64,000 nt of DNA from Candidatus Levyibacteriota bacterium (GCA_963790825.1 CAWBPM010000004.1:94987-158986); one strand, 5' to 3'; numbered from the stretch's first letter, positions 3,780 to 43,622 are shown. Notes: generated by a model from the letters alone, not told the origin. Program-made: numbers and translations.

Positions 3780-3865
3780 GGAGAGGTGACCGAGTGGTCT
3801 ATGGTAACGGTTTACTAAACCGTCGAATCGCAAGATTCCGGGGGTTCGAATCCCCCCCTCTCCGC
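3780..3865 (+). tRNA. Type II (long variable arm) tRNA, Ser-like; anticodon reads ACU by hand folding
   Basis: GGAGAGG acceptor, Ser-type D-loop GAGTGGTCTAT, anticodon stem ACGGT/ACCGT with loop TTACTAA, variable hairpin GAATC-GCAA-GATTC, T-arm GGGGG-TTCGAAT-CCCCC, 3' CCTCTCC-G. The A34 is unusual, see findings. Confidence 0.6.
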
Positions 3866-3965: not shown

Positions 3966-4805
3966 ATGGATGAGCAGGTTAAATCATTTCAACTTACTCC
4001 AGCACCTGACAAGAATCATCATAAACGAATAATTTTGTATACAATAGGAGTACTACTTCTTCTAATTATTGGTGGAGGAATAGGATATCTTTGTGCACTG
4101 AACTCTTCGCTCTCTCCTCATTCTTCGTACGAACAAAATAATGGACGAATAATCCCTCCTCAAAATCTTATGGCCTCTCCCCCAAATCCTCCAATTACTA
4201 CTACTCCACATTCATCTATGGATACATCAGGCTGGAAAACTTTCAGTAATCCTAAATATGACTTTGAATTTAGTTATCCAGCAAATCTTGATCTGAAAGA
4301 ATATCCTAATAGGGTGAATTTATATAACAATAATTCTATTAACGGGTCTAATTACATAAACATTGGTATTGTGGAAAAGAAAATACCGACTACACAATCC
4401 TTAAAAGATTTAATTCAACAGGATACCTATATGGATCTGCCAAGCGGGCATAAAGGTTCAATTATTCAAGAACCGCTTACTCCATATCCGTTTGGGCAAT
4501 ATGAGGCCTATACCTTTTCAGGTGGCACCAAAGAAAATGATAAATATATCTATGTAAGAAACGGCACGACAGTAGTGATCTTCTCTGCAACCGGTTTTCA
4601 AACCGGCAGTAGTTACAGTAAAAATGAATTAACTATATTAAATCGCCTAATCTCAACCTTCAAATTTACAAATCAAAATCATACTTCATGTAATTCAAAC
4701 AGCGATTGTCAGAACAATGAAACCTGCCAGATCTGGGGACCACTTATAGCCAACCAGCCTCCAAACAAAGTTTGCACAAAACAAGGCGAAGCTGTTCCTT
4801 TATAA
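3966..4805 (+). CDS. Hypothetical membrane-anchored protein (N-terminal TM helix, Cys-rich C-terminal region)
   Basis: ORF track. TM segment ILYTIGVLLLLIIGGGIGYLCAL, then a Ser/Pro/Asn-rich extracytoplasmic region and a C-terminal CNSNSDCQNNETCQ...CTKQ motif. No recognisable family. Confidence 0.45.
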   Translation: MDEQVKSFQLTPAPDKNHHKRIILYTIGVLLLLIIGGGIGYLCALNSSLSPHSSYEQNNGRIIPPQNLMASPPNPPITTTPHSSMDTSGWKTFSNPKYDFEFSYPANLDLKEYPNRVNLYNNNSINGSNYINIGIVEKKIPTTQSLKDLIQQDTYMDLPSGHKGSIIQEPLTPYPFGQYEAYTFSGGTKENDKYIYVRNGTTVVIFSATGFQTGSSYSKNELTILNRLISTFKFTNQNHTSCNSNSDCQNNETCQIWGPLIANQPPNKVCTKQGEAVPL

Positions 4806-4947
4806 CCCCTTAGTTAACAGGATATTCCTTTGATAATGCTTCTATCATTTTATGTCAATTGCTGTATTTGTTGATATATTATTTCCGGATCTTCAACTAT
4901 TTCTCCCAATTCATAGTTCGAAAATCATTCCATTTTCTTCATAGTTA

Positions 4948-6315
4948 TTAAATAATTCCCTGTTTTCGTTTTATCTCCGTCCAATATTTTTCTTGTCTGC
5001 ATAATTTTCTCTCATCTGCTTTATCTTTCAGAATATATTTGATTGCTTCTTCCAGAAAAATAGTGTTTTGCGATCCTTTTACTAAAATAAGAGCGTTCTG
5101 GGGTAAATGCTCGGAGAGATATTCGCCTGCTCTTTTTGCCGAGTCAAACCAGCGGATTTCCTTAAAGTTCTTATTCTGGTGTTCTACGTCTTGAATCACA
5201 TAGTCGCGAGTCAGTGGTCCAACGCAATATAAATAATCGGCCTGTTTTGCAATTTCTTGGGCAATTTTTTCATGTTCCTGCCCTGCTTCTTTTCCCAGTT
5301 CGCGCATGTCGCCAAAGAGAAATACAAACGGCCGGTTTGTCTGTTTTTTTAATTCCTGCAAAAGAGCAAGAAATGCCCTAACCGCTGATGGAGATGCGTT
5401 ATAGGAAGAGTCAATAATAAGAGTTTCGTTAATGCCCTGGAAAATACTGCCGCGCCCTTTCGGAAGAAGAAAGTTTTTCTCTAAAGAAAGCGTTATTTGT
5501 TGAAGATTAAGCCCTGCAGTCAGTCCTACCAGGATACTTGCAGCAAAAACTTCTTGGTAGACAATTGGCAGAATTTGCTTTAAAAAATGCAAGTTAATTT
5601 CTTCTTTTTTCCCAAGCCAATTCACTATAAATGAATAATTTATTCCCTCAACTGAGATTTTATAAGATTTATAAGAAATAGTGTTCTCTACCCCTTCCCC
5701 GAAGGACAATAGTTCTGTTTTCGTCGTCTTTTTCTGAAAGGCATTTATTTGCTCAGCAATATATCTATCGTCCATGTTATAGATTCCAATTCGACACATT
5801 GATTCTCTGATAATTTTCGTGTCTTCCCATGCCATTTGGCTTAGAATTTGTTCCATGGGATTTTCTATCTCCTTACCCTTGAATATTTTTTCAAATTGCT
5901 CCGTATGTGTCGGTGAAATATTCAGGGAAATTGCAATATCCGGTTTCACAATCGTTAGTAAATACTCCATATTTTTCGGCGGGTTTGGATCATCGATTCC
6001 CATTTCTGCAATTAAATACTTCGTTCCTCTAAGATAATTCAGTCCGAACGGCAATCTCACAACTATTAATAACCAATCAAGCCAAGTAAAACCAACAGGT
6101 GTAATGCCCAAAATCCCAAGCGGCACGCCGGTTTCCGAATTACCCACGGCTTTTGTTAAAAAATGATCTCGTAAGATCGCTGTTATTGCGTTTCGAGCGG
6201 ACGATTTACCGACCGATCCGGCAACGCCGATAACAGTCGGTTTATGCAAAGCGAGTGCCAACCGTGCCCAAAATCGCAAATAGCAAAGGATACTAAAGAT
6301 AAGGTATTTCCTCAT
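4948..6315 (-). CDS. Mur ligase family protein, MurF-like (UDP-MurNAc-peptide ligase)
   Basis: P-loop VIGVAGSVGKSS, then DSSYNASP and FGDMRELG motifs typical of Mur ligases and MurF. Confidence 0.65.
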   Translation of the reverse strand: MRKYLIFSILCYLRFWARLALALHKPTVIGVAGSVGKSSARNAITAILRDHFLTKAVGNSETGVPLGILGITPVGFTWLDWLLIVVRLPFGLNYLRGTKYLIAEMGIDDPNPPKNMEYLLTIVKPDIAISLNISPTHTEQFEKIFKGKEIENPMEQILSQMAWEDTKIIRESMCRIGIYNMDDRYIAEQINAFQKKTTKTELLSFGEGVENTISYKSYKISVEGINYSFIVNWLGKKEEINLHFLKQILPIVYQEVFAASILVGLTAGLNLQQITLSLEKNFLLPKGRGSIFQGINETLIIDSSYNASPSAVRAFLALLQELKKQTNRPFVFLFGDMRELGKEAGQEHEKIAQEIAKQADYLYCVGPLTRDYVIQDVEHQNKNFKEIRWFDSAKRAGEYLSEHLPQNALILVKGSQNTIFLEEAIKYILKDKADERKLCRQEKYWTEIKRKQGII

Positions 6316-6361
6316 GCTCTTGTATTATAGCAAGATTTGAGTAGTTACAAATCATTTGATG

Positions 6362-6450
6362 GGCGGAGGGAGGGGGATTCGAACCCCCGGTGATCTTGCG
6401 ACCACACACGCTTTCCAAGCGTGCGCACTAGACCACTATGCGATCCCTCC
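6362..6450 (-). tRNA. tRNA-Ser(GGA), type II
   Basis: Reverse complement reads GGAGGGATCGCATAGTGGTCTAGTGCG-CACGC-TTGGAAA-GCGTG...GGGGGTTCGAATCCCCC-TCCCTCC-G. Anticodon loop TTGGAAA gives GGA. Coordinates approximate. Confidence 0.7.
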
Positions 6451-6462
6451 ATCTACAACAAA

Positions 6463-6888
6463 CTAATAACTGGAGATTAGTTTTTCCGCTTCCTTCCAGA
6501 CTTTTTTATCTGACGAATACGTTAAACGATCCCCTGTCTCACCAATCGGTAGCCACTGCACATTTTCCATCTCGAAATCATGTTTAGTTATATCACCTTT
6601 TAAATATTCCATGATGTAATAATAAACTGTTTTTTTAATTTTCTCTCCTTTAAACTGATACCAAAAAGTCGTGGGGGTTAATGGTTGTATGATATTGCCT
6701 TTTGCTCCGGTTTCTTCTTCTACCTCTCTAAGAGCTGTCGATTCTTTAGTTTCACCTTTATGCGTATCTCCGATCAGTCCCTTGGGAAATACCCACCCGT
6801 GATGCTGTGAATGCTGCGCCAAAAGAACATACAGTTTCCCGTTTTGCTTTTTATACACTACCCCGCCTGCAGAAAATTCGAATTTCAT
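6463..6888 (-). CDS. NUDIX hydrolase
   Basis: Nudix box GETKESTALREVEEETG (GX5EX7REUXEEXGU) in a 141-aa protein. Confidence 0.8.
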   Translation of the reverse strand: MKFEFSAGGVVYKKQNGKLYVLLAQHSQHHGWVFPKGLIGDTHKGETKESTALREVEEETGAKGNIIQPLTPTTFWYQFKGEKIKKTVYYYIMEYLKGDITKHDFEMENVQWLPIGETGDRLTYSSDKKVWKEAEKLISSY

Positions 6889-7013
6889 AGTTAAATTTCT
6901 AAAAAGATTTTATAAGCTAAATATCAAGTTAACCTGAGCTATTCTTTCTATACTTCGAGTGTAATTATATCGTATTTGCTTGACAAATGCAGGGCAGAAA
7001 GGAAATAATAAAT

Positions 7014-7616
7014 ATGATAGAAAGATTTATTATGGGAGAAACCGGAGAAATACAAATCAATCCCGCTCCTCCATCAGGAGAAGTCTTACCGCCGGCACTT
7101 ACCCCTACGCCGCTAGAAGGAGCACCTTCGGTTTCTCCTCTTGAACCCGCAGCCTCTGACTTAACAATGGCAGAAAATAAGGCCGAAATCGCAGACATCC
7201 AGCACCAATTACAAGAAATGCCTCCAGCAGCTATCGGAGGTTCTGAGCATTCCGAACTAATAGGAGCACCGATAACTGAGACTAATCTACCTACCCCTGC
7301 TCCTGAACAGACTCTCGCTGTGCAGCCCGGACAGAGCCCGGAGAGAGCAGTAGCAACGCCTGGCAAAACACAAACGCATGCTGCGGAAAACAAAAATAAA
7401 TTTCAGAAGTTTTTGGATAAACTTCCCCATCCGATAAAATGGACGAAAAACGAGTTGATTGAATGGCGGGAGCACCCGATACAAAAGCTAAAAGGACTTG
7501 GACTGGGAACATGGAGGGTGGGCTCGCTTTTAGCTATGCTATTTGGCGTCTTTTCTATTTGGCTTACGAAAGTCACCACTAAGCCATTTGCCCAGCTGGG
7601 TCAACGAAAACGCTAA
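7014..7616 (+). CDS. Hypothetical Pro/Ala-rich protein with C-terminal TM helix
   Basis: ORF track 6987..7616, trimmed to the in-frame ATG (MIERFIMGE...). Low-complexity PAPPSGEVLPPALTPTPLEGAPS region and C-terminal hydrophobic LGTWRVGSLLAMLFGVFSIWL. A TTGACA/TAATAA promoter-like pair lies about 30 nt upstream. Confidence 0.4.
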   Translation: MIERFIMGETGEIQINPAPPSGEVLPPALTPTPLEGAPSVSPLEPAASDLTMAENKAEIADIQHQLQEMPPAAIGGSEHSELIGAPITETNLPTPAPEQTLAVQPGQSPERAVATPGKTQTHAAENKNKFQKFLDKLPHPIKWTKNELIEWREHPIQKLKGLGLGTWRVGSLLAMLFGVFSIWLTKVTTKPFAQLGQRKR

Positions 7617-7721
7617 GTGGCGGGCAGGATTCTCAACATAACCGGTTGGATCTTTAGCGAGAGCTATCAACACCTATTCACTCCAGTCAATTGATTTGTT
7701 TAATAAAGACATGGCGAAGTG

Positions 7722-7795
7722 TACGCCTGAGAGGATTTGAACCTCCGACCCTCAGATCCGGAATCTGATGCTCTATCCAGCTGAGCTACAGGCGC
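7722..7795 (-). tRNA. tRNA-Arg(CCG)
   Basis: Reverse complement GCGCCTGTAGCTCAGCTGGATAGAGCA-TCAGA-TTCCGGA-TCTGA-GGGTC-GGAGG-TTCAAAT-CCTCT-CAGGCGT-A. Anticodon loop TTCCGGA. Confidence 0.7.
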
Positions 7796-7878
7796 ATGAG
7801 GAAGGCGAAACGTAATAAATTTCTTCGAAATTTAAACGTTTCAGCAACGTTGAAATTGTTTTGCAATTTCTTACGTTG

Positions 7879-7967
7879 CGGAGGGAGGGAGATTCGAACT
7901 CCCGATCCCGCAAATGCGGGATAGCGGTTTTCGAAACCGCCGCACTCGACCACTATGCGATCCCTCC
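7879..7967 (-). tRNA. tRNA-Ser(CGA), type II
   Basis: Reverse complement GGAGGGATCGCATAGTGGTCGAGTGCG-GCGGT-TTCGAAA-ACCGC-(variable arm)-GGGAGTTCGAATCTCCC-TCCCTCC-G. Confidence 0.7.
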
Positions 7968-8036
7968 AGATTTTACAAAAAAAATCAAATCTTTATTTAA
8001 TTTTGAATTTTACACTTTAAATTTTAAATTATTCCG

Positions 8037-8110
8037 TACCCTCGGGAGGATTCGAACCTCTGACCTCAACGTCCGCAACGTTGCGCTCTATCCAGCTGAG
8101 CTACGAGGGC
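8037..8110 (-). tRNA. tRNA-Arg(GCG)
   Basis: Reverse complement GCCCTCGTAGCTCAGCTGGATAGAGCG-CAACG-TTGCGGA-CGTTG-AGGTC-AGAGG-TTCGAAT-CCTCC-CGAGGGT-A. Anticodon GCG by hand fold. One T-stem mismatch. Confidence 0.6.
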
Positions 8111-8150
8111 TTATCGGTATTGTAGCCGATATAATTGTTTGAAGCAATTC

Positions 8151-8861
8151 TTACGAAGTTTTTTCCAGGGGAAATGTCCGTTCCAGCCAATCTCCAGCTT
8201 TTTCCATAAAAACTTTTTTTACGAATTCCCTATATGGAAGATAGGGTAAGAGTACTGATTTTACCTCTTCTTTTGACATACTGCCTAGTGTAATAACCAA
8301 CTCTCCGGGAAAAAGTGATTGCGTTGTAATAATAAGCACCTCTGCCCCGCTACGCTTTTGGAAGTAAAAATCATAGAGTTCTTGCCAGAGAAAAAAGTAC
8401 TCATCGACTCCAACCCCTTCTGTGCTAATTCGATATCTGGAATCATGCGGCGGAATAGAAACCAAAGCAAACACCGCAAAAACCAGAGCTAAAACGACTG
8501 CCATGAGCGCAATTTGACTAAAAAGAAAGAGGATGATTTCAATTGCAAGCATAATCAGCAGGCAATTAGCGTAGAATTCATGACTGTGTTTACGAAACGG
8601 TCTTCCCGGGCCGGTCCAGGTAAGGAGTGTTTGTACGTCTGTAAAGGCGGCATTTTCTGATTCTGCGACTTTTGTAGTAGCTGGCTTTGTTACGGCTTGT
8701 GTTTTCTCCTGCGTTTGAGTAGCTGATTTTTCCTGCAATGAACTTTTCGCCGTTTTTACTTCTTTTTTTTCCATAGACAATTCCATAGTAATATGCATTT
8801 CCCCAAACGTCAAGTAAGCACTTCTTCCATTGTGGACAAAGACATGATTTGTTATACTCAA
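8151..8861 (-). CDS. Hypothetical membrane protein
   Basis: ORF track. Lys/Thr/Gln-rich N-terminal region, then two hydrophobic helices (LLIMLAIEIILFLFSQIALMAVVLALVFAVFALV) and a C-terminal soluble domain. The true start may be an internal Met (MELSMEKKEVK). Confidence 0.45.
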   Translation of the reverse strand: MSITNHVFVHNGRSAYLTFGEMHITMELSMEKKEVKTAKSSLQEKSATQTQEKTQAVTKPATTKVAESENAAFTDVQTLLTWTGPGRPFRKHSHEFYANCLLIMLAIEIILFLFSQIALMAVVLALVFAVFALVSIPPHDSRYRISTEGVGVDEYFFLWQELYDFYFQKRSGAEVLIITTQSLFPGELVITLGSMSKEEVKSVLLPYLPYREFVKKVFMEKAGDWLERTFPLEKTS

Positions 8862-8870
8862 AAAGCCTTT

Positions 8871-8960
8871 GGAGAGGTCGTCCCAGTCGCGGGACTAACC
8901 TCCTCAATACATTCGGAGAGGTCGCATATCGCAGTGAAGCGAAGACCCCAATTAGCGGGG
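8871..8960. repeat. Two truncated copies of a tRNA-Ser 5' end (GGAGAGGTCG...)
   Basis: GGAGAGGTCGTCCCAGTCGCGGGA... at about 8871 and GGAGAGGTCGCATATCGCAG... at about 8915 share 10-14 nt with the 5' end of the intact tRNA-Ser(UGA) at 9028. They lack D, anticodon and T arms. Confidence 0.4.
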
Positions 8961-9027
8961 GGTGGTCGTCCTGCAAAGCAGGATAAAAAACGAGATAACA
9001 CTCCGAATCAAAGTTTTAGGAATAGAT

Positions 9028-9114
9028 GGAGAGGTCGCATAGTGGTCGAGTGCGGAGGTCTTGAAAACCTTTGTGGCAGTAATGCTACCGCGAGTTCGAA
9101 TCTCGCCCTCTCCG
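9028..9114 (+). tRNA. tRNA-Ser(UGA), type II
   Basis: GGAGAGGTCGCATAGTGGTCGAGTGCG-GAGGT-CTTGAAA-ACCTT-TGTGGCAGTAATGCTACCGC-GAGTTCGAATCTC-GCCCTCTCC-G. Anticodon loop CTTGAAA. Confidence 0.7.
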
Positions 9115-9159
9115 CACTTCAGCAAGCTCAGTACTTCGATCATTAAGATTGCCATAATA

Positions 9160-9212
9160 GTGGCGAGATGAGAGGTGGTGAGCCCGTCGTACCAAATCTC
9201 GCCCTCTCCGCC
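9160..9212 (+). repeat. Degenerate duplicate of the tRNA-Ser(UGA) 3' end (AATCTCGCCCTCTCCGC) inside a short hairpin
   Basis: 17-19 nt identical to tRNA positions about 9098-9116, repeated about 95 nt downstream and embedded in a GGCGAGAT...ATCTCGCC inverted repeat. Confidence 0.35.
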
Positions 9213-9259
9213 AAGTAATCCCGCTTCATTTTTAGGACAGAGTGGATGACTTTAGAACT

Positions 9260-9856
9260 TTAGGGGTAAGTTACTAGATAGTGCACAGGGCATGGATACG
9301 GATATATTTTTATCAAATGTTTTTTGTTTAAATCAAGAATTTTACTGCCATTCTTTATTTTCTTATTTGCAAACACACAATCAAAATCAACAATTAGTAT
9401 TTTTTTATCTTTATTCTTTAAAATATATTTCTCTAGTAACTTAACCGCACGAGATTGATTAAATTGCACGCTATTCCAGGCATCCATAGATTGATAAAAT
9501 TTACTAATATTTGGAAAATAAGATTGACTCCAAAGAAGGACTAACTTATTAGTTGAAAAAGGGATTATTTCATCACTTGAATAATTTTTATTACTTGATA
9601 CATAAATCATGGCATTTTGGTCAAACGAGCCAATTCTATATATACCAATCATATATATAAATATTAGCTGACTACCAAGAAAACATAATAATATTGATAA
9701 ATAAACGTAAACATTAATAATTAAAAATACTTTATAAGAATAAACTTTTATATTGTGTAAAATAATAGTTACTACTTTTATAAGAAAGATACATGAAGTT
9801 AACGAAAAGAAACAGAGTAAGTGAGTAAAGTGTTTTGTAAAAATAATAACTAACAT
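9260..9856 (-). CDS. Hypothetical protein; possibly the C-terminal soluble domain of the upstream membrane protein separated by a frameshift
   Basis: ORF track. Overlaps the 3' end of 9732..11162 by 125 nt in another frame. Hydrophobic N-terminal part, then a soluble tail. Extremely AT-rich. Confidence 0.3.
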   Translation of the reverse strand: MLVIIFTKHFTHLLCFFSLTSCIFLIKVVTIILHNIKVYSYKVFLIINVYVYLSILLCFLGSQLIFIYMIGIYRIGSFDQNAMIYVSSNKNYSSDEIIPFSTNKLVLLWSQSYFPNISKFYQSMDAWNSVQFNQSRAVKLLEKYILKNKDKKILIVDFDCVFANKKIKNGSKILDLNKKHLIKIYPYPCPVHYLVTYP

Positions 9857-11162
9857 GCCCCGCAGTTACCATTTGTAGGATAAATATTAGAAAAGAATAT
9901 CCTCCGGAGAATATAATAGAAAGCAGTAAATAGATATTTCCTTTGTTTTTTTTATTAAAAAATACATAACCTATTGCTATTAACAATAAAACAGTAAGTA
10001 TTTGTATGCTAATGCTGAACACTCCTCCCGGTGAATTAAAAGCATTTATAATCCCATCAATATTACTAGCTGCTATGTCTCTCAGATTATAAACAATTGG
10101 GATAAGAGAGCCAATAATCCCTGCAATAAATATCATTAGCATTTTTTTATTAATGTTCTTATAGAGATAATAAACACAAAGGGCTGATGAAACAGGTGTT
10201 AATACCCACCAACTTGCAGAAATTGCGAAATTTAAAAGCATAATAAATACGAACCTGGAAGTACTATGGTCCTTTTTGGAATTCTCAAGAATATAAAGTA
10301 ATAATATAAGGAAAATAAATGATGTAATTTGTGCAAAAAATCCAAAATAAAATAAGCTCAGTATTATAAATCCAAAAATAAACAAAAATAGGAAAGGGAT
10401 TGTAATTATTTTTATGGAAAATTCTCTAGACCTATCAATATATTTATCTACAAGTAGTCCAAATATATATAAAAATACTCCAATGAGAAAAAATGAGAAA
10501 ATATAATAATAATTTGAAAGAAATAAAATATTATCTTGATTTATATCTTGCTTAAAAAATAAAAAAGTTATGGCGGTATTAACATAGAACCCTGGAGGAT
10601 AAGCTAAAATCGATGTAGGTCCTAATATATTGTAAAGAAAATGGGTACCATAAAGCAGTTCTTTTCGCTCGACTGCCAATTTTACCATTGCGAAATGAAC
10701 TCCCCCATCCCAATCTGTCATAACTGGTAATCTATTACCGTTACCGTAATGACTAATACCTGAGAAAAAAACAGCAAATATTAAAACTGGTGTTGTTAAA
10801 TATAATAGATCTTCTTTCGTGCATATCTTGTCTACAGAAAACTTCTTCTTAATAAAAAGTAAATATAAACCCACAATAAATATATATAAAGTACCGATAT
10901 AAATAGGATAAAGTGGGATGTGGAAAAAGAAAAAAATAAATGCCAGTACTATATTTACAGCCAAGAATGTAACGAAAGCGATTACAAGCCTTTTAACTAA
11001 ACTCCAATCATTTGGAAAAGCAAAAGCAATTAAAAACAGGGCCAATAACAACAAAATAATTGTAAATTTCAATCCACAAATGTAGAGCAAAAAAATAATC
11101 AGTAATTTCTTGTTCTTGGATTTTATAATAGATTTGCTGTTGTTTAGCTTTTTATTTGTCAT
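9732..11162 (-). CDS. Polytopic membrane protein, putative lipid-linked-sugar (GT-C/GtrC-like) glycosyltransferase
   Basis: 476 aa with more than 10 predicted TM helices and no soluble catalytic domain. Sits divergently from a GtrB/ArnC-like GT2 plus a small membrane protein, the classic three-gene glycan-modification layout. ATG confirmed at 11160-11162. Confidence 0.5.
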   Translation of the reverse strand: MTNKKLNNSKSIIKSKNKKLLIIFLLYICGLKFTIILLLLALFLIAFAFPNDWSLVKRLVIAFVTFLAVNIVLAFIFFFFHIPLYPIYIGTLYIFIVGLYLLFIKKKFSVDKICTKEDLLYLTTPVLIFAVFFSGISHYGNGNRLPVMTDWDGGVHFAMVKLAVERKELLYGTHFLYNILGPTSILAYPPGFYVNTAITFLFFKQDINQDNILFLSNYYYIFSFFLIGVFLYIFGLLVDKYIDRSREFSIKIITIPFLFLFIFGFIILSLFYFGFFAQITSFIFLILLLYILENSKKDHSTSRFVFIMLLNFAISASWWVLTPVSSALCVYYLYKNINKKMLMIFIAGIIGSLIPIVYNLRDIAASNIDGIINAFNSPGGVFSISIQILTVLLLIAIGYVFFNKKNKGNIYLLLSIIFSGGYSFLIFILQMVTAGHVSYYFYKTLYSLTLFLFVNFMYLSYKSSNYYFTQYKSLFL

Positions 11163-11358
11163 ATAAGGACATCTATTTAGGTTAATTTCGCATTTTTCGC
11201 ATTTATAGTATATAAAGACAGGAATTTTCTTGATTACACCAATACTTTACATAAATCGAACGGGCTATTCTCAAATTCATATCTAACTTCTAATTTCTTG
11301 GGTGGCATTCTTTTTAATATACTATATTTATATGGTAGAATACAATTCAGCTGAGTTT

Positions 11359-12033
11359 ATGATAAAGAAAAAAATATTTATTATTATTCCGGTATTTAAT
11401 GAGGAATCTGTATTGAGAGATATAATTAATAAGGTAAGAAAAGAAGGCTATACTAACATTTTAGTTATTGATGATGGGTCTACAGACAATTCTTATGGGG
11501 TTGCAAAAAAACAGAAAGTAATTGTATTAAGACATTTAATTAATAGAGGAAAAGGTGCAGCGATTAAGACTGGTTTTGAAGCGGCTAAAATACTTAATGC
11601 ATCTGCTGTGGTTACATTTGATGGAGACGGACAGCATAGCCCAAATGATATTACTAATTTAATCAAAAAAGTGAATGCTGGCTACGATGTAGTGCTAGGC
11701 ACAAGAAGTATGAATATAAAAACCATGCCTTTTATTAAGCTCCTTGCCAACTTTACAGCAAATTTTATTACCATGATGATATATGGTTTGTGGGTACACG
11801 ATAGTCAATGTGGGCTTAGAGCTTATTCAAAAAAAGCGCTCTCGTTAATTAATACAAAAAATGACAGATATGAGTATGACAGCGAGATAATTAGGGAGAT
11901 ATCAAGACATAAGTTGCGATATACCGAAGTACCTATCCAGGTTCACTACACAAGATATTCAACAACTAAAGTATATAAACAATCTTTGCCTAACGGAATT
12001 AGAGCCGTGACAAAAATGATTCTTTCTCTATAG
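11359..12033 (+). CDS. GT2 polyprenyl-phosphate glycosyltransferase (GtrB/ArnC/DPM1-like)
   Basis: IIPVFNEESVL...VIDDGSTDNS...LINRGKGAAIKTGF...FDGDGQH, the DXD/GT-A signature of Und-P sugar transferases. Track start 11302 is GTG, trimmed to ATG (MIKKKIFIIIPVFNE). Confidence 0.75.
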   Translation: MIKKKIFIIIPVFNEESVLRDIINKVRKEGYTNILVIDDGSTDNSYGVAKKQKVIVLRHLINRGKGAAIKTGFEAAKILNASAVVTFDGDGQHSPNDITNLIKKVNAGYDVVLGTRSMNIKTMPFIKLLANFTANFITMMIYGLWVHDSQCGLRAYSKKALSLINTKNDRYEYDSEIIREISRHKLRYTEVPIQVHYTRYSTTKVYKQSLPNGIRAVTKMILSL

Positions 12034-12036
12034 AAT

Positions 12037-12396
12037 ATGATTTCAGATTTTCCTATTTATCGAATAATTGTTATTTTAATTTCTTTATATTTTTTGGTTT
12101 CTGGATTTTATAAGTTCTTTAAGAGAGAGCACTATCAGTCTTTATTTAAATTACTAGTAACTTTAATTGTTTGGGGAGGAATACTGATCTTTATTTCAAC
12201 ACCGAATATTACACATTTCATATCAAAAAAACTGGGTCTGGGGGAAAACTTAAATACATTAATTTTTACAGGTTTTATTTTAGTTTTTATTTTATTGTTT
12301 AAATTAATAAATATTATTGAGAAGGTCGAAAGAGATATTACGGATATTGTCAGAAAAGAAGCAATTAAAAAAATAGGGGCTAAAAGTAATGAGTAA
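12037..12396 (+). CDS. Small membrane protein partner of the GT2 (GtrA/DUF2304-like position)
   Basis: 119 aa with 2-3 TM helices, immediately downstream (4 nt gap) of the GT2. Confidence 0.45.
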   Translation: MISDFPIYRIIVILISLYFLVSGFYKFFKREHYQSLFKLLVTLIVWGGILIFISTPNITHFISKKLGLGENLNTLIFTGFILVFILLFKLINIIEKVERDITDIVRKEAIKKIGAKSNE

Positions 12397-13486
12397 AAAA
12401 GCGCTTAATATTTGTTTTATATTAGAGCATTATTATCCTCATGTCGGGGGGGCAGAAATCATCTTTAAAGAGTATATAACAAGGTTGTCGAAACTTGGTC
12501 AGAACGTAAATGTGATAACAAGCAACTCAGGTGGCATAGAAGGCATATCTGTTATTGATGGGATAAAAGTCCATGGCCATAAATGGAAATCATTTTTCGG
12601 GCATCCAGTTCCAAATATAAATGATATCGAGAAGGCTATTCAAGAAGCAGATATAGTTCATACTGCAACATACACAGCAGGGCCAATTGCACAACGTATT
12701 GCAAAGAAGTACAGCAAGCCCTGTGTTATTACTGTATATGAAGTATTAGGGAGAAAGTGGTTATGGGTGGAAAGTAATCTAATTTTGGCATTATGTTATC
12801 TATTTTTTGAAAAATATGTTATCAGTAGACCGTATACTGCTTATCACGCTATATCTCATGCTACTGAAAAGGATTTAATTAATTGTGGGGTTAAGAGAAA
12901 AAAAATAGTTACAATCTATCCCGGCGTGGATATAAAGGATCGTAAAAGAGTACTGTCTACTTCGAAAAACAAATATTTTTTGTATTTTGGGAGACCCGGG
13001 AAAACAAAGGGTATATTTATTTTATTTAATGCTTTTAAGAAAATACATAAAGAATTAAATAATTACAAACTCTTGTATATACTAAGCAATGATCCTTTAA
13101 GTGAGAAGCAAAAGTTGAAAAGGTTAGTTAAAAAAGATAACTTGACAAATCAAATTAAGATAATTGACTCTGTTTCTAAAAAAAAATTAATTAGAATCAT
13201 CCAAAAATCGTTTTGTGTTGTGGTGCCATCAATTACAGAAGGATTTGGCTTAAGTGCATTAGAGTCATGCATACTAGGTGCTCCAATAATTGCAAGTGAC
13301 GCAGGTTCACTACCAGAAGTGGTATATGGAAGAAAAGTATTATTTTTTAAAAACCGCGATATTGATGATTTAACAAATAAAATTAAAAAGGCTATTTATG
13401 GAGAATACGAAATAGTTAGTAAAAAAAACTTTTCATGGAATAAGTCTGTAAATTACTTAGCAGATTTATATATAAAATCATCATGA
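12389..13486 (+). CDS. Glycosyltransferase family 4 (GT-B, Glycos_transf_1)
   Basis: C-terminal EGFGLSALESCILGAPIIASDAGSLPEVV motif (E-X7-E region of GT4). Confidence 0.7.
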   Translation: MSKKALNICFILEHYYPHVGGAEIIFKEYITRLSKLGQNVNVITSNSGGIEGISVIDGIKVHGHKWKSFFGHPVPNINDIEKAIQEADIVHTATYTAGPIAQRIAKKYSKPCVITVYEVLGRKWLWVESNLILALCYLFFEKYVISRPYTAYHAISHATEKDLINCGVKRKKIVTIYPGVDIKDRKRVLSTSKNKYFLYFGRPGKTKGIFILFNAFKKIHKELNNYKLLYILSNDPLSEKQKLKRLVKKDNLTNQIKIIDSVSKKKLIRIIQKSFCVVVPSITEGFGLSALESCILGAPIIASDAGSLPEVVYGRKVLFFKNRDIDDLTNKIKKAIYGEYEIVSKKNFSWNKSVNYLADLYIKSS

Positions 13487-14652
13487 AAAAGTCAATTTAT
13501 TGGCACTTTCCACATTTCCTATATTGGATGGGTGGTACAAGATTTTTATTAGATATAGCTCAACGATTTAATGATAGTAATTTAGAACTTATTTTTATAT
13601 GCAATAATGGTAATGACAGTATTATAAATACTTTTAGGAAAAATAACAAAGTAATTACAACTTCATTTTTAACAACAAATTCGATATTTTATTGGCTTTT
13701 ATTTCCAATTTTTATTATTTGGGATATAATTATATCCTCTTTCTATTTGAGTAAAGCTGATTATATAATTGCAACTGCTTTTCCATCCAATTTAATTTGC
13801 GCCGTTTACTCTTTTATTCTTAATAAAAAATATTATTTCTATTGCTATGAACCGTTTATCTTTTTTCATAATAGAGATTTTATTAATAGGCTACCTCTGG
13901 CTAAAAAATTATTTGTTAAATTTTTAGCATTACTCTATGGAAACTTAGATATGTTGGCTTCAAAAAAAGCATATAAAATATTTACTATTGATGCTTTTAA
14001 GGCACAGGAAATACAATTAGTATATAACGTAAAACCAATAATTACATCCCTAGGAGTAGACACTAACCATTTTCGTTTTATAAATAATAAAAAAATAAAC
14101 AATTTATTTAAGGGAAGACCAATTATATTACATTCTACGGATTATACAGAATTAAAAAGAACAGATTTAGCCATCATGGCATTTAATGAATTAGTTAAAA
14201 AGATACCAAATATTATATTATTAATCACCTCTACTCAGCCAAATTCTCCTAATAAGAAAAAATATCAAAATTTAGTTAAGACTTTACATTTACAAGAAAA
14301 TGTAAAGTTTCTAGGAACAATACCCTATAAAGAATTACCTTTATATTATTCATCAGCAATTTGTTATATATCCAGTTGTCATGATAAAATAACTGCGGGC
14401 AATTGGCCAGTAAAAGAATCGTTAGCTTGCGAAACACCAGCCATTAGATCCCCTATTGCCACAAGGGATGTCATAGATGGTATATCGGGTTTTTTGGTTG
14501 ACCCCAAAAACATCAAGTTGGTAGCAAATAAAATCGAATTTCTCGTAAAAAATCCAAATCTTGCACACAATATGGGAAAACAAGGCAGAAAGTTCATACG
14601 TAAAGAATACAATTGGGATAACATTATAAACAAAATATTAATTAATTTATAG
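13483..14652 (+). CDS. Glycosyltransferase family 4-like
   Basis: C-terminal KESLACETPAIRSPIATRDVIDGISGFLV resembles the GT4 nucleotide-sugar binding region. Overlaps the previous gene by 4 nt. Confidence 0.6.
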   Translation: MKKSIYWHFPHFLYWMGGTRFLLDIAQRFNDSNLELIFICNNGNDSIINTFRKNNKVITTSFLTTNSIFYWLLFPIFIIWDIIISSFYLSKADYIIATAFPSNLICAVYSFILNKKYYFYCYEPFIFFHNRDFINRLPLAKKLFVKFLALLYGNLDMLASKKAYKIFTIDAFKAQEIQLVYNVKPIITSLGVDTNHFRFINNKKINNLFKGRPIILHSTDYTELKRTDLAIMAFNELVKKIPNIILLITSTQPNSPNKKKYQNLVKTLHLQENVKFLGTIPYKELPLYYSSAICYISSCHDKITAGNWPVKESLACETPAIRSPIATRDVIDGISGFLVDPKNIKLVANKIEFLVKNPNLAHNMGKQGRKFIRKEYNWDNIINKILINL

Positions 14653-14675
14653 AAAATATTGTATATTTTATTACG

Positions 14676-15302
14676 ATGCTTAAAAATGTAATTATTATTG
14701 GATCAGGCGGCCATGCGAAAGTAGTTATAGATATTTTAAATATAAATGCAAATTATAAAATCATTGGCTGCATTTCAAAAGATCCTCCAGAAAAACATAT
14801 ATTAAATATTCCCATATTGGGAAATGATGATATTATTCCCGAATTATTCCAAAAAGGTATAACAAACGTATTTATAGCAATTGGAGAAAATAAACTAAGA
14901 TTGAAGCTGGCGGAGTATCTGACCAAGATGGGTTTTAATATTATAAATGTAATTAGTAATGACTCTAATATATCAACAACTGTTAGCCTCGGAAAAGGTA
15001 TTGTGGTTATGCCGGGTGCTAGTATAAACGTTGATACAGTAATCTCAGACTATTCTATTATTAATACAAATTCTTCAGTAGACCATGATTGTTTTATCGG
15101 TAAAGCAATACATATTGCTCCTGGGTCAAATTTAGCTGGTAATGTAAGCGTAGGGGAAGGATCGTTTCTTGGGATAGGATGTGTTGTCACCCCAGGGATA
15201 TCAATTAATGAGTGGACAACCGTAGGTGCAGGAAGCGTTGTAATTAAGAATCTCGAGTCTCATTCGGTTTATGTAGGAAATCCTGCAAAGAAAATAAAAT
15301 GA
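14676..15302 (+). CDS. Sugar N-acetyltransferase, NeuD/PglD/WbpD hexapeptide-repeat family
   Basis: N-terminal Rossmann-like IIIGSGGHAKVVIDIL, then a left-handed beta-helix hexapeptide region (IGKAIHIAPGSNLAGNVSVGEGSFLGIGCVV). Confidence 0.7.
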   Translation: MLKNVIIIGSGGHAKVVIDILNINANYKIIGCISKDPPEKHILNIPILGNDDIIPELFQKGITNVFIAIGENKLRLKLAEYLTKMGFNIINVISNDSNISTTVSLGKGIVVMPGASINVDTVISDYSIINTNSSVDHDCFIGKAIHIAPGSNLAGNVSVGEGSFLGIGCVVTPGISINEWTTVGAGSVVIKNLESHSVYVGNPAKKIK

Positions 15303-16447
15303 CTAATTATATGAAAACTAAAAAATACATAAGTATCGCATGTCCAACACTTAACGGTAATGAAAAAAAATATGTAAATGATTGTCTTGATACCGTGTGG
15401 ATATCTTCTATAGGTAAATATATAAATAAATTTGAAGAAGAATTTGCAAAGTATTGCGGAGTTAAACATGCAATTGTGTGCAGTAACGGAACCGTAGCAT
15501 TGCACTTACCCTTACTTGCTTATGATATAAAGCCCGGAGATGAGATAGTGCTTCCCACATTAACATATATAGCAACAGCAAATGTCGTTAAATATTGTGG
15601 AGCCACACCTGTTTTAGTTGATAGCGAAAAGGATGCATGGAACATAGACCCCACAAAGATAGAAGAAAAAATTACAAATCGTACAAAGGGAATTATTGTT
15701 GTGCATCTTTATGGACATCCCGTAGATATGGATCCTATTCTAAAACTCGCAAAAAAATATAATTTATTTATCATTGAAGATGCATCAGAAGCTCACGGAG
15801 CAGAATATAAAAATAGAAAGGTAGGATCGATTGGCAACGTTGGAACATTTAGTTTTTATGGAAACAAAATAATCACCGCTGGCGAAGGCGGAATGGTAGT
15901 AACAAATAGTAATACGCTTGCAGGTAAAGTAAGACTATTAAAAGGGCAGGGTATGGATCCAAAACACCGATATTGGTTTCCTATAATTGGATACAATTAC
16001 CGAATGACTAATATTCAGGCTGCAATTGGATTAGCACAATTAGAAAAAATTGACTGGCATATGAAAAAGAGAGAAATAATTGCTGAAAAATACCAAAGAC
16101 GCTTAAATAAACTTAAAGATTTTATAGAAACTCAAAAAGAAAAAGCTTGGGCACATCACGCTTATTGGATGTTTAATATCGTCTTGAAAAGCAATTTAAA
16201 TATCTCTAGGGATTCGTTTATGAAAAAATTAGAAGAGAAAGGTATTGAAACACGACCCATATTCTACCCCATGCACATAATGCCTCCTTATCTCGATAAG
16301 CTTTGTAAATATCCTGTTGCCGATTATGTATCATCAAGAGGAATAAGTTTACCGTCTCATGCTAACTTAAATAATAAAGACATAGAATACGTTACCAATC
16401 AAATAGAACAAATAATCCAAAGTTGCTTAGGGAATCAAGTAAAATAA
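15299..16447 (+). CDS. DegT/DnrJ/EryC1/StrS-family PLP-dependent sugar aminotransferase
   Basis: GTFSFYGNKIITAGEGGMVVTN (PLP lysine region) and overall DegT architecture. Start overlaps the previous stop (ATGA). Confidence 0.8.
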   Translation: MTNYMKTKKYISIACPTLNGNEKKYVNDCLDTVWISSIGKYINKFEEEFAKYCGVKHAIVCSNGTVALHLPLLAYDIKPGDEIVLPTLTYIATANVVKYCGATPVLVDSEKDAWNIDPTKIEEKITNRTKGIIVVHLYGHPVDMDPILKLAKKYNLFIIEDASEAHGAEYKNRKVGSIGNVGTFSFYGNKIITAGEGGMVVTNSNTLAGKVRLLKGQGMDPKHRYWFPIIGYNYRMTNIQAAIGLAQLEKIDWHMKKREIIAEKYQRRLNKLKDFIETQKEKAWAHHAYWMFNIVLKSNLNISRDSFMKKLEEKGIETRPIFYPMHIMPPYLDKLCKYPVADYVSSRGISLPSHANLNNKDIEYVTNQIEQIIQSCLGNQVK

Positions 16448-16575
16448 TTAGAGATTCTATGCAATTCTAAAATTCATGGATAGTAAATTTACTAAAGCTT
16501 TTTTCATCACTCTCCTGGCAATTGCCCCTCCCCTCTCTTGACAACTCCCCGGAAATGTCCCACACTAGAGATATT

Positions 16576-18363
16576 ATGCGATCTGCCCTTGCGTATTTTA
16601 TGGGAAAAAAGTTCTTGTCTTTTTTGGCTGTCATTTTTTTTGCAGCTGTTTTTTTCTTCTCCCCAACATCCAGTTTTGCTCAAGCTACTGCTTCCTCTCA
16701 ACAGACCACACAGACACAAGCCGCAAACAATTATCTTTTCCCGAAAGTTGATCCGGGCGTTGAGCAGAATCAATCTACCTTTGTTCAAGCAATTTTCCTA
16801 GAATCGATGGCCGGAGTTATCTGTCAACTGGATGGAGTCGATCCCACCAATCCGACCCATGGCTGTTTAACGATTAATCCGCAGACACACGCCTTTACCT
16901 ATTCACCTCTCCCGCAAAATGGAAAAGTTGGCGGTCTCATAGGCTTCTCGACAGTTGCAATGGGCGGTCTATATACTCCTCCCGCCAGCAGCGGTGAGTA
17001 TTTTCGCGACTTGGCGTATAATTTCGGAATTGCCAAACCGGCTGAAGCATCCGGATTTGATCAACTGGTACCGCTTCTAAACATGTGGAAATTATCCAGA
17101 AACATTGCCTATCTCTTTCTGGTAATTGTATTCATTATTTTAGGCGTTATGATCATGCTTAGAGTAAAGGTAAATCCGCGGACCGTGATGACAGTGCAAA
17201 ACCAAATACCCAGAATTATTATCGGCATTCTCCTGATTACCTTCTCCTATGCAATCGCCGGACTACTGGTCGATGCGATGTGGGTTACCACTTATTTTGC
17301 GATTAATGAACTTTCAAATATTCCCCATGGCTCTGTCGGCGGAGGAGCAGCTACGGCAAGTATTCTAAACCATCCTCTTTCTTGGTTTAATGACGTCCTC
17401 AGCAATGCTCCAGTCCCTCCGGGCGCCTCCCGCGCGCCATACGACTGTGGCACTATTAACCTTCCGGGAGGAAGCATCCCCGTTAAAGGAATAGCGTGTC
17501 TTACGGGAAAAATAGGGGACAGTTTCACCACTCTTCTCTCAAATCTTATTTCACAAGTTACCGGATTTGATAATAATAATAAATGTAGTTTTACAGATCC
17601 CACGTCTTGGGTTACGGGGTGTTTATATAATTTTGTCTTCTGGCTTATACATTTCATCATAAATCTTATCATTCTTATTACTATAGTGATTCTCCTGTAT
17701 CGTGTTTGGTTTATGCTGCTTAAAGCTTACATACTTATTCTCATATACGTCGCAACAGGTCCCTTGTGGATTATTGCCGGCATGCTTCCGGGAAGTACTT
17801 TTGGTTTTATTCCTTGGATCAAGCGTCTTTTGGCGCACCTGCTGGTATTTCCCGGTGTTGTTGCGCTTATTATTTTCGGTTTGGATATTGCCTCATCTTT
17901 CTCGCAACAAACAGGGGGGACGAACGGGCTATTTATTCCTCCGCTGATTGGCAATGTCGCCAGTAACACTAGCCCTGTTGGTAATATCGGCTGGATGATC
18001 GCACTTGGCGTGCTGCTTTTAGCCCCTGAAGTCTTACAAATGCTGAAGGACGCATTCGGCTTAAAAAGAAATCCATACACCCCGGCAATCGCGCTCGGAC
18101 TGGCAGCGGGTGCTAATCCGCTCAACGCCGGAGCCAACGCAGGTTGGAGTAGACTGATGAGACCTGAGGATCAGATGCATAATGCAGGGGCAGCCAGACG
18201 GATGCTATTAACCGCTGCTAAACCAAGTACTACTGACAATAGATTCCAAAAGGTCGCAAGAGGCGTGTTAAAAACAGTGATAGTTCCAAATAAGTGGGAA
18301 ACAGGATCAAAGACAATACAACCACAACAACCTGTCCAAGGCCAAGGAGGAGGAACGCCATAA
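16576..18363 (+). CDS. VirB6/TrbL-like polytopic membrane protein with Sec signal peptide (putative T4SS inner-membrane channel component)
   Basis: Signal peptide MGKKFLSFLAVIFFAAVFFFSPTSSFA|QA, at least 6 TM helices in the central region, Gly/Ala/Pro-rich C-terminal tail. Track ORF starts at TTG 16522. Plausible ATGs at 16555, 16576 and 16600. Confidence 0.45.
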   Translation: MRSALAYFMGKKFLSFLAVIFFAAVFFFSPTSSFAQATASSQQTTQTQAANNYLFPKVDPGVEQNQSTFVQAIFLESMAGVICQLDGVDPTNPTHGCLTINPQTHAFTYSPLPQNGKVGGLIGFSTVAMGGLYTPPASSGEYFRDLAYNFGIAKPAEASGFDQLVPLLNMWKLSRNIAYLFLVIVFIILGVMIMLRVKVNPRTVMTVQNQIPRIIIGILLITFSYAIAGLLVDAMWVTTYFAINELSNIPHGSVGGGAATASILNHPLSWFNDVLSNAPVPPGASRAPYDCGTINLPGGSIPVKGIACLTGKIGDSFTTLLSNLISQVTGFDNNNKCSFTDPTSWVTGCLYNFVFWLIHFIINLIILITIVILLYRVWFMLLKAYILILIYVATGPLWIIAGMLPGSTFGFIPWIKRLLAHLLVFPGVVALIIFGLDIASSFSQQTGGTNGLFIPPLIGNVASNTSPVGNIGWMIALGVLLLAPEVLQMLKDAFGLKRNPYTPAIALGLAAGANPLNAGANAGWSRLMRPEDQMHNAGAARRMLLTAAKPSTTDNRFQKVARGVLKTVIVPNKWETGSKTIQPQQPVQGQGGGTP

Positions 18364-28405: not shown

Positions 28406-28825
28406 ATGAGTACACAATTAAAAAAATTTGCAATCATTTCCTCAACAGTAGTACTTTACACATTAGCTGCTTCCCAGACTTTTGCTGCTGGTGCTGCTAG
28501 CTTTGGATCGGGGTGTAATGGTAGTTTTAGTGCTCTTTGCGGTAACAGCGCATCATTTGCTACTATCTTTAGTTGGGTTGTTAATCTCTTGTTCTTTGCT
28601 GCAATCGCAATTGCGCTTATCTTCTTAATTTGGAATGGTATTCGCTGGATTCTTTCCGGTGGAGATAAAGGAAAAGTTGATGAGGCAAGAAAAGGTGTTA
28701 TTGCAGCTCTGATTGGGCTTGTGGTTGCACTTGTTGCCTATTTCATCATCAATCTTGTATTAAATCTCTTGGGACTGGGTGGACTAAATTCTCTTAGTGT
28801 TCCCTCTATTACTCTTCTCTCTTAG
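28406..28825 (+). CDS. VirB2/TrbC-like pilin with signal peptide
   Basis: Signal peptide FAIISSTVVLYTLAASQTFA, Cys pair (SGCNGSFSALCGNS), then LLFFAAIAIALIFLIWNGIRWILSGGDKGKVDEARKGVIAALIGLVVALVAYFIINLV. Confidence 0.6.
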   Translation: MSTQLKKFAIISSTVVLYTLAASQTFAAGAASFGSGCNGSFSALCGNSASFATIFSWVVNLLFFAAIAIALIFLIWNGIRWILSGGDKGKVDEARKGVIAALIGLVVALVAYFIINLVLNLLGLGGLNSLSVPSITLLS

Positions 28826-36858: not shown

Positions 36859-36883
36859 TTTATCTATAGTAAAAGTAGGTATT

Positions 36884-37468
36884 ATGAATAATCAAAAGAA
36901 TCTCTTGTTTTTCTTTTATGGTCTTGCTTTTCTCGTTCTTGCTTGTATTATCTTATATATTTTTTTTATTGGCTCTCACCATTCTATAAAAAACCCATCT
37001 ATACAACCCGTTGAGACAGTTACTTCATTTCCTTCGCAAGGCACAAATAACATTAACCCCCCATCTTTTAAATCAATTCCAACAACCCCCCCCAGTCAAG
37101 GGGGAGGTATTAGTGAAAATTCTCCAATCTTACTTGCTTCAAAAGCAGAAATACAAAAGATCTATCTCTACCTACCTTATAAAATTGATTATCAATTATC
37201 CACGGGTATTAGTGTATCTGTAATTATTCCAGGAAGAGACCTGCAGCTCAATCCTTGGAGTCTAACTGTTCAAATTGAAAATATTAATTATAATACCTCT
37301 TCTACCCAACCTGACTACGAACAAATGAAAGCTTCATTTATCCAGGCTGCGGGCAATGTATTTGGATGGATTGAGCAAAAGGGAGCTGATCCAAAAAAAA
37401 TTCTCTTTGTTTGGTCTAATAAGAAATACGCACAAGAGCAAGCAGAAAGCTGGTTGATCTCACAATAA
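36884..37468 (+). CDS. Hypothetical secreted/membrane-anchored protein
   Basis: Track ORF 36842 starts at TTG, trimmed to ATG (MNNQKNLLFFFYGLAFLVLACIILYIFF). Contains a C8 tract encoding TPPS. Confidence 0.45.
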   Translation: MNNQKNLLFFFYGLAFLVLACIILYIFFIGSHHSIKNPSIQPVETVTSFPSQGTNNINPPSFKSIPTTPPSQGGGISENSPILLASKAEIQKIYLYLPYKIDYQLSTGISVSVIIPGRDLQLNPWSLTVQIENINYNTSSTQPDYEQMKASFIQAAGNVFGWIEQKGADPKKILFVWSNKKYAQEQAESWLISQ

Positions 37469-37476
37469 ATTAGATT

Positions 37477-40318: not shown

Positions 40319-40567
40319 ATATTACTACTTGTAGTTGTAGTAGTGTATATGGAAAAGTGGAAAATTGCAAGAGAAGCTTACCCCATAATACAACAAAAAA
40401 CAGAGAACACTTTTTTATTAAAAGCTAAATATTGAAAGACAGCAGACTTAATTTGTGCAATAATAAATAATTAGCTGATAAACAACAGGTATAAAAAATG
40501 TGGAAAAAAAGTTGATATTTTTGGGCATAACTTGTTAATAAGGTAATTGATGGGTTATCCCCCTTTT
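40319..40567. promoter_or_regulatory. AT-rich dnaN-dnaA intergenic region with imperfect DnaA boxes, candidate oriC/DUE
   Basis: AGTGGAAAA (about 40356), TGTGGAAAA (about 40499), TTATCCCCC (about 40552), plus long A/T runs (AATAATAAATAATTAGCTGATAAACAAC). Confidence 0.35.
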
Positions 40568-42233: not shown

Positions 42234-42251
42234 AACCACACATCCTATCTC

Positions 42252-42787: not shown

Positions 42788-42793
42788 AAACAT

Positions 42794-43621: not shown

Positions 43622-43622
43622 T

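Follow-up and report, generated by a model that had tools for sequence, protein, structure and literature searches.

A compositionally distinct, probably horizontally acquired glycan-biosynthesis island at a tRNA-rich junction of a Candidatus Levyibacteriota chromosome

Glycan islands of low guanine-plus-cytosine (GC) content beside transfer RNA (tRNA) genes are a textbook phenomenon, and surface-polysaccharide loci typically have a lower GC content than their genomes; for many O-antigen and capsule loci, it has been argued that the low GC is maintained locally. Patescibacteria are among the organisms in which genomic islands have been described before (mSystems 2025, PMC12455944). Among the closest described glycan systems, a division of labour between a glycosyltransferase (GT) of family 2 (GT2), a DUF2304 protein and a GT of the GT-C fold has been characterised experimentally for GacI/GacJ/GacL of Streptococcus pyogenes and PpgS/Rv3632 of Mycobacterium tuberculosis, which carry out lipid-linked side-chain glycosylation of wall polysaccharides (10.1101/180810). 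The DUF2304-family proteins GacJ and Rv3632 bind and activate the GT2s GacI and PpgS (bioRxiv 10.1101/180810). Here, we describe a 7.2-kilobase (kb) island of seven sugar-pathway genes in a 64,000-nucleotide stretch of DNA (GCA_963790825.1, CAWBPM010000004.1:94987-158986; hereafter the window) from a Candidatus Levyibacteriota bacterium. The window holds dnaA, dnaN, yidC, housekeeping genes and a cluster resembling a type IV secretion system (T4SS), and it is part of a chromosome of the Patescibacteria, or candidate phyla radiation (CPR). The region is a real surface-glycan island with clear limits, and its horizontal acquisition by a CPR genome is well supported. It represents a familiar kind of genomic island and not a new system.

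The island shares with tRNA-associated low-GC islands and with O-antigen and capsule loci an atypical composition, a tRNA neighbour, surface-glycan cargo and absence from relatives. Unlike integrase-type tRNA islands, it has no integrase, bracketing direct repeats or mobility genes, and it sits between tRNA-Ser paralogues, at the junction of an inversion. All its open reading frames (ORFs) fall to glycan functions. Six plus-strand genes form an operon in the order GT2, DUF2304, GT4, GT4, PerB-like and Per-like, with overlaps of 4–8 nucleotides or gaps of 3–23 nucleotides, and one divergent minus-strand gene is separated from the operon by a spacer of 139 nucleotides. The non-coding borders between the island and its neighbours measure 145 and 74 nucleotides. 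Promoter and terminator scans gave results no better than shuffled sequence. The original prediction, made from the DNA alone, had named a membrane GT, a GT2 with its small membrane partner, two GT4s, a NeuD/PglD acetyltransferase and a DegT aminotransferase, and Pfam and NCBIfam scans showed these gene calls to be right. Counted from the first nucleotide of the window, the genes are as follows:

9260–11162, minus strand: GT-C-fold multi-pass membrane protein (AlphaFold2 and Foldseek).
11302–12033 (likely start 11332), plus strand: GT2 of the polyprenyl-phosphate sugar synthase type, PpgS/GacI/ArnC/DPMS-like (Pfam PF00535, NCBIfam, PDB).
12037–12396, plus strand: DUF2304 small membrane protein of the GacJ/Rv3632 type (PF10066).
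12389–13486, plus strand: GT4 glycosyltransferase a (Pfam Glycos_transf_1 and Glyco_transf_4; generic PDB similarity).
13483–14652, plus strand: GT4 glycosyltransferase b (Pfam Glycos_transf_1; generic PDB similarity).
14676–15302, plus strand: PerB-like N-acetyltransferase of the NeuD/PglD family, left-handed beta-helix (TIGR03570, 4EA7).
15299–16447, plus strand: Per-like pyridoxal-phosphate aminotransferase of the GDP (guanosine diphosphate)-perosamine synthase type (Pfam DegT, 3DR7/3BN1).

The GC content of positions 9250–16450 is 29.8%, against 41.6% over the remainder of the window, while the lowest value among 424 non-overlapping segments of 7.2 kb was 0.389 (mean 0.413, standard deviation 0.011). 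A two-boundary likelihood segmentation placed sharp edges at about 9300 and about 16510 and scored approximately 196 log-likelihood units above the unsegmented model. Thus, the AT-rich island that had been seen by eye at about 9.25–16.45 kb is borne out by both the GC profile and the segmentation. The discontinuity extends to codon usage. Codon positions 1, 2 and 3 are all lower in GC within the island genes, and GC at the third codon position (GC3) is 0.21–0.28 there, compared with mostly 0.34–0.45 outside. At four-fold degenerate sites, the seven island genes have a GC content of 0.24 (0.20–0.27) and the 41 other genes 0.41 +/- 0.07 (Mann–Whitney p = 4e-5). Among arginine codons, AGA accounts for 59% in the island and 28.5% in the other genes, and CGG for 0% and 17%, respectively. 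Since all codon positions, four-fold sites and arginine codons are affected, the drop in GC is not purely an effect of proteins rich in Lys, Asn and Ile.

The site of the island was compared with that in four distant Patescibacteria relatives (L008, L010, L011 and L012). Their gene order is ComF, tRNA-Ser(GCU)/tRNA-Ser(ACU), variable cargo, tRNA-Ser(UGA) on the minus strand, a homologue of a 236-residue gene, tRNA-Arg(GCG), tRNA-Ser(CGA), tRNA-Arg(CCG), a variable ORF, a NUDIX gene, tRNA-Ser(GGA) and a VirB6-like gene. In all four, tRNA-Ser(GGA) lies immediately upstream of the VirB6-like gene, and none of the seven island proteins gave a tblastn match within 10 kb of that gene. The same relatives conserve ComF, the tRNA set, the 236-residue gene, NUDIX, VirB6, a giant protein and Trans_reg_C. 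In the window, the features around the island are as follows:

6360–9115, no strand assigned: inverted block from tRNA-Ser(GGA) to tRNA-Ser(UGA) with NUDIX, tRNA-Arg(CCG), tRNA-Ser(CGA), tRNA-Arg(GCG) and the 236-residue gene (order and strand against relatives).
8915–8928, plus strand: exact copy of the first 14 nucleotides of tRNA-Ser(UGA), with 0 mismatches.
9028–9115, plus strand: tRNA-Ser(UGA), next to the island on its left side (ARAGORN; Rfam tRNA, 57.6 bits).
9195–9211, plus strand: exact copy of the last 17 nucleotides of tRNA-Ser(UGA), then CCA, between the tRNA and the island.
16522–18363, plus strand: VirB6/TrbL-like first gene of a conserved Patescibacteria T4SS-like cluster, of normal GC (homologues and synteny).

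The inversion of 6360–9115 is flanked by serine tRNA paralogues in opposite orientation. Because the block is inverted, tRNA-Ser(UGA), which has orthologues in L008, L010 and L011, is turned towards the VirB6-like gene, and the island separates the two. The adjacency of island and tRNA thus partly reflects the inversion of a tRNA-bounded block and not insertion alone. In the relatives, the cargo 3′ of tRNA-Ser(UGA) is VIT1 (L008), YjbQ with a P-type ATPase (L010) or nothing (L011). Different genes at this place in each relative mark the tRNA-flanked region as a hotspot of rearrangement and insertion. In L011, tRNA-Ser(GCU) and tRNA-Ser(ACU) are flipped as well, which suggests that tRNA-bounded inversions are recurrent in this lineage. 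At the other junction of the inverted block (3966–6315), we found a MurF-like Mur ligase, which scores 168 bits against TIGR01143 and so stays under the cut-off, together with an ORF of 279 residues whose four-fold GC is 0.29; both are lineage-specific, with no counterpart at that position in the relatives.

A foreign origin of the island is supported by its synonymous-site composition, by its absence from the corresponding place in all four relatives and by the low-GC contigs that carry the nearest Per/PerB pairs. The named top matches of Per come from Nitrospirota, Thermodesulfovibrionales, Paenibacillus and similar taxa (60–66% identity; best unnamed matches 68–69%), so that its best named matches lie outside Patescibacteria, unlike those of the flank gene, which are named Patescibacteria. 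The VirB6-like homologues are named Levybacteria, Saccharimonadales or Patescibacteria, some with PF04610; the best database homologue is only 38–43% identical, and the databases hold no close relative. The nearest PerB–Per pairs are found on contigs with low GC throughout (29–35%; L002, L005, L006, L014, L015 and L024), a range that includes the value of the island itself. Based on these results, we consider it likely that a seven-gene cluster free of mobility genes was acquired horizontally by a Patescibacteria chromosome at a rearrangement-prone tRNA/T4SS junction, and that its products act along the route proposed below. Horizontal acquisition as such is well supported, and the donor would have been a low-GC lineage.

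The original prediction had placed this acquisition at a tRNA site. Its description of the left border was accurate: the island starts 145 nucleotides past the end of tRNA-Ser(UGA), with exact 14- and 17-nucleotide copies of the tRNA ends nearby, for which the chance expectation is about 0.14–0.21 even with mismatches allowed. No pseudo-tRNA was detectable around these fragments. Composition, synteny and the Per matches all back acquisition, whereas site-specific integration into the tRNA is not borne out. An integrase-mediated island inserted in the 3′ end of tRNA-Ser(UGA), with the 17-nucleotide copy as an att remnant and the integrase later lost, would fit the short distance to the tRNA, the exact 3′ end with CCA at 9195–9211 (relatives have only a single copy of this end) and the variable 3′ side of the tRNA among relatives; even so, we consider it improbable. 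Both copies of the 3′ end lie to the left of the island, and no tRNA-derived repeat was found at the right border (16440–16620) or at the other junctions searched. The island is therefore not bracketed, and insertion of the integrase type is unsupported. A copy of the 5′ end of the tRNA is also present, which 3′-end integration does not predict. The island contains no integrase, recombinase, excisionase, phage or plasmid genes, and no integrase remnants or att repeats lie near 16450; borders of just 145 and 74 nucleotides leave no room for a remnant. A phage search and a PADLOC defence search of the island returned no matches, and similarity to plasmids was restricted to the Per gene, which in blastn matched an annotated E. 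coli rfbE "GDP-perosamine synthase". A more economical reading than insertion by an integrase is that the island entered by recombination in this tRNA-rich hotspot, perhaps in connection with the inversion.

Less probable still is vertical inheritance of an ancestral glycan cluster that kept its low GC locally and that the four relatives have since lost or moved elsewhere. The generally low GC of surface-polysaccharide loci, the distance of the relatives compared and the presence in the window of other genes with low four-fold GC (3966–4805, 28406–28825 and 36842–38894) would agree with such a history. However, tRNA-Ser(GGA) stands directly before the VirB6-like gene in each of the four relatives with no island gene within 10 kb, so that repeated clean losses would be needed. 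In addition, synonymous-site GC and arginine codons in the island differ from those of the 41 neighbouring genes, membrane proteins included, and the named best matches of Per are not from Patescibacteria.

A mis-assembly, in which a low-GC metagenome fragment was joined to the contig at a repeated tRNA sequence, is very improbable: the independent Logan contig L001 does start inside the tRNA (window 9087), right at the repeated tRNA fragments, which leaves the join of the island to the genes left of the tRNA without independent confirmation, but it includes the last 29 nucleotides of the tRNA and the 17-nucleotide fragment, reproduces the right junction by joining the island to 7.6 kb of normal-GC T4SS genes at 99.993% identity, and these T4SS genes show Patescibacteria synteny. 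L001 breaks inside tRNA-Ser(UGA), beside the duplicated fragments; these repeats evidently interfere with the assembly of short reads across the left border.

With horizontal acquisition as the preferred history, we turn to the products of the island. The GT2 matches Pfam PF00535 (4.5e-26). Its top NCBIfam model is PpgS, followed by AglJ and ArnC, and its best PDB matches are ArnC (2.4e-15) and then DPMS. Sequence similarity thus places it in the polyprenyl-phosphate sugar synthase group. The Logan gene call for this protein has 233 residues. The DUF2304 gene begins 3 nucleotides past the GT2 stop codon, and its product scores 58.6 bits against PF10066 (cut-off 25.5). For both GT4s, PDB searches gave generic similarity, from which no specificity could be assigned. 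As in GacI/GacJ/GacL and PpgS/Rv3632(/Rv3630), a GT2 gene is immediately followed by a DUF2304 gene, with a GT-C gene alongside. The module has the same parts as these systems but falls outside them by its equivalog scores and its missing flippase. The GT2 reaches 144 bits against the PpgS equivalog cut-off of 370, and no flippase of the GacK/Wzx, GtrA or ArnE/F type is present in the island or among the window genes scanned. Furthermore, the sequence of the GT-C protein resembles neither GacL nor Rv3630 nor any Pfam GT-C family, the sugar is probably not N-acetylglucosamine or N-acetylgalactosamine, and the host belongs to the CPR.

The divergent gene encodes a membrane protein of 633 residues when intact. 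One extra A at 9805–9808 (AAAA, against AAA in the Logan assembly of run ERR11594402) divides its gene in the window into two ORFs, of 476 and 198 residues. Over 14,987 bases, a single gap of one nucleotide is the sole difference between the window and L001, in which the 633-residue gene is intact. The extra A may stem from an error in sequencing, mark a true pseudogene or reflect variation within the population. The sequence of the 633-residue protein matched nothing in Pfam, NCBIfam or the PDB, and a word-indexed homology search returned nothing but itself. When all 1.84 billion representatives were scanned with HMMER, 127 remote homologues were found; homologues are about 600–650 residues long and align across the join of the two ORFs. 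The nearest (P0242, 33% identity) is likewise divergent from an adjoining GT2. In an alignment of 50 sequences, D152, H156, Y439 and K443 are invariant. AlphaFold2 run on this alignment gave a predicted local distance difference test (pLDDT) value of 86.9 and a predicted TM-score of 0.91, compared with a pLDDT of 50, too low for use, for a single-sequence model. In Foldseek against the PDB, the best 13 matches were all GT-C proteins (STT3, AftA, DPY19, PglB and Pmt4; probability 0.96–1.00), after which the results dropped sharply to unrelated transporters of low probability. The GT-C fold found in this way supports the earlier "membrane GT" call. Based on the model, we suggest that the protein is a putative polyprenyl-phosphate-sugar-dependent glycosyltransferase of an uncharacterised GT-C family.

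The identity of the sugar is indicated by the last two genes of the operon. The aminotransferase matches Pfam DegT (2.4e-127), and its best PDB match is the Caulobacter perosamine synthetase 3DR7/3BN1 (458 bits, 2e-136, full length, about 53–55% identity); the next PDB match scores 330 bits and ArnB about 197 bits. In the database, the gene call of a homology match (P0001) starts at 15311, 4 codons downstream of 15299. The acetyltransferase scores 218 bits against TIGR03570 (cut-off 160.8), contains a PglD_N domain and has the Caulobacter perosamine N-acetyltransferase PerB (4EA7; 182 bits, 7e-53) as its best PDB match, with PglD at about 100 bits. As in the island, PerB directly precedes Per in the closest metagenomic loci. 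Because the best solved matches are Caulobacter Per and PerB, the likely product is GDP-N-acetylperosamine. Judged from these closest solved homologues, the island sugar is probably N-acetylperosamine (PerNAc; 4-acetamido-4,6-dideoxy-D-mannose), with which the gene products would decorate the cell surface. The island enzymes resemble Per/PerB of Caulobacter crescentus, the best solved and full-length match of both, as well as RfbE/PerA of E. coli O157 and Vibrio cholerae O1. They differ from the Caulobacter pair in an identity of only about 45–55% and in having no gmd or manBC nearby.

Other amino sugars were considered as well. Bacillosamine, the product of PglF/PglE/PglD, was rejected based on the PglD score (about 100 against 182 bits for PerB), PglE-type structures far under Per and the lack of PglF. 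Legionaminic and pseudaminic acids were rejected because of lower relative scores (376 bits to the NCBIfam LegC-family model, under its cut-off of 420) and missing genes of these pathways. The literature searched contained no paper linking N-acetylperosamine with CPR bacteria. Consequently, the earlier reading of an N-acetylated amino-dideoxy-sugar pathway holds and is sharpened to N-acetylperosamine by the Per/PerB matches, but the pathway is incomplete in the window. Among the genes of the 64-kb window that were scanned, we found no 4,6-dehydratase (Gmd), ManB/ManC, flippase, initiating phosphoglycosyltransferase or exporter.

We suggest the following route for the island products. Per and PerB would convert GDP-4-keto-6-deoxymannose, supplied by a Gmd encoded elsewhere, to GDP-N-acetylperosamine. 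At the cytoplasmic face, the soluble GT2, activated by its DUF2304 partner, would then charge polyprenyl phosphate with a sugar. If the pathway works like ArnB, ArnA and ArnC, this would most economically be the same N-acylated amino sugar. The lipid-linked sugar would be flipped by some further factor, after which the GT-C enzyme would move it to an extracytoplasmic acceptor, such as a wall glycopolymer, a lipoglycan or a surface protein. The two GT4s may build or extend a cytoplasmic glycan, possibly also with GDP-PerNAc. Here we infer the identity of the sugar, its lipid-linked route and the acceptor.

In this arrangement, the locus resembles the Arn system (PmrHFIJKLM), the aminoarabinose pathway of lipid A, which likewise combines an aminotransferase, N-acylation of the amino sugar, small membrane proteins, an external GT-C and a GT2 that charges undecaprenyl phosphate (ArnC, to which the island GT2 has its best PDB match). 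It differs from Arn in lacking ArnA, ArnD and ArnE/F, in an acetyl (PerB-type) instead of a formyl group, and in a GT-C with no sequence relation to ArnT. To our knowledge, CPR bacteria have no lipid A. A more specific version of the proposal is tentative, and we regard it as rather unlikely: an undescribed Arn-like route in which the GacI/GacJ-type pair loads GDP-N-acetylperosamine onto the lipid, and the uncharacterised GT-C, with invariant Asp152 and His156 and no Pfam model, transfers the sugar outside the cell as a strain-specific CPR surface decoration. If so, the decoration may be carried by the pili encoded in the neighbourhood, an S-layer or the T4SS-like apparatus, and it could alter host attachment or phage recognition.

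Several observations weigh against acquisition of a functional module along these lines. The relatives compared are distant (35–44% identity for the VirB6-like protein, 61–68% for NUDIX and 49–52% for Trans_reg_C), and the cluster may have been lost in their lineages or have a similar counterpart elsewhere in their genomes. Shared AT-driven amino-acid composition may inflate the similarity of Per and PerB to low-GC homologues. The full seven-gene donor arrangement was not found in 80 metagenomic Per loci, where the PerB–Per pair is the sole recurring part. The GT-C gene is frameshifted in the window assembly, and its Foldseek TM-scores to GT-C structures are only about 0.4. The GT2 falls far below every NCBIfam equivalog cut-off, and the missing Gmd, ManB/ManC, flippase, initiating phosphoglycosyltransferase and exporter belong here too.

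Beyond the island, the T4SS-like cluster (16522–36858) includes the VirB6-like gene and genes for a 1450-residue protein, a Trans_reg_C regulator, several PF18895 pilins, PrgI and a VirB4/TraG-like ATPase. Its gene order is kept in the distant relatives, with a giant protein of 983 to 1890 residues. Genes with island-like four-fold GC (0.21–0.29) at 28406–28825 and 36842–38894 encode a T4SS pilin paralogue, a 208-residue ORF, a CHAP-domain protein and a Big_5 protein, and they may be other recent imports within the T4SS-like cluster. The neighbourhood of the replication origin (39203–48210) carries dnaN, dnaA and yidC, and the minimum of the cumulative GC skew lies near 45–46 kb. This region also encodes a Wzy_C O-antigen-ligase-like protein (44005–45351) and a DUF4012 protein (45532–48210), both of normal GC, which could act on the acceptor side for surface glycans.

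Beside tRNA-Ser(GCU), the window contains a tRNA-Ser(ACU) with A34 (3780–3865, plus strand), which also occurs in L010 (3074–3160) and L011 (7572–7659). Its anticodon loop TTTACTAAA is kept in these two distant relatives and its stems show compensatory changes, so that it is a real gene. Apart from tRNA-Arg(ACG), bacteria rarely have tRNAs with A34 (see also PMC11066159).

Bacteria of the CPR/Patescibacteria, whose genomes are tiny, need contact with host cells. We know of almost no information on their surface glycans. The island indicates that reduced CPR genomes still exchange genes for envelope decoration, and it offers a recent import with intact flanking synteny for comparison. Its newer aspects are a GT-C family that is still uncharacterised, a chemistry that in this CPR bacterium is probably that of N-acetylperosamine, and the tRNA-bounded inversion. 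The GT2, the DUF2304 protein and the new GT-C family form an experimentally tractable trio, with N-acetylperosamine as a likely and unusual sugar.

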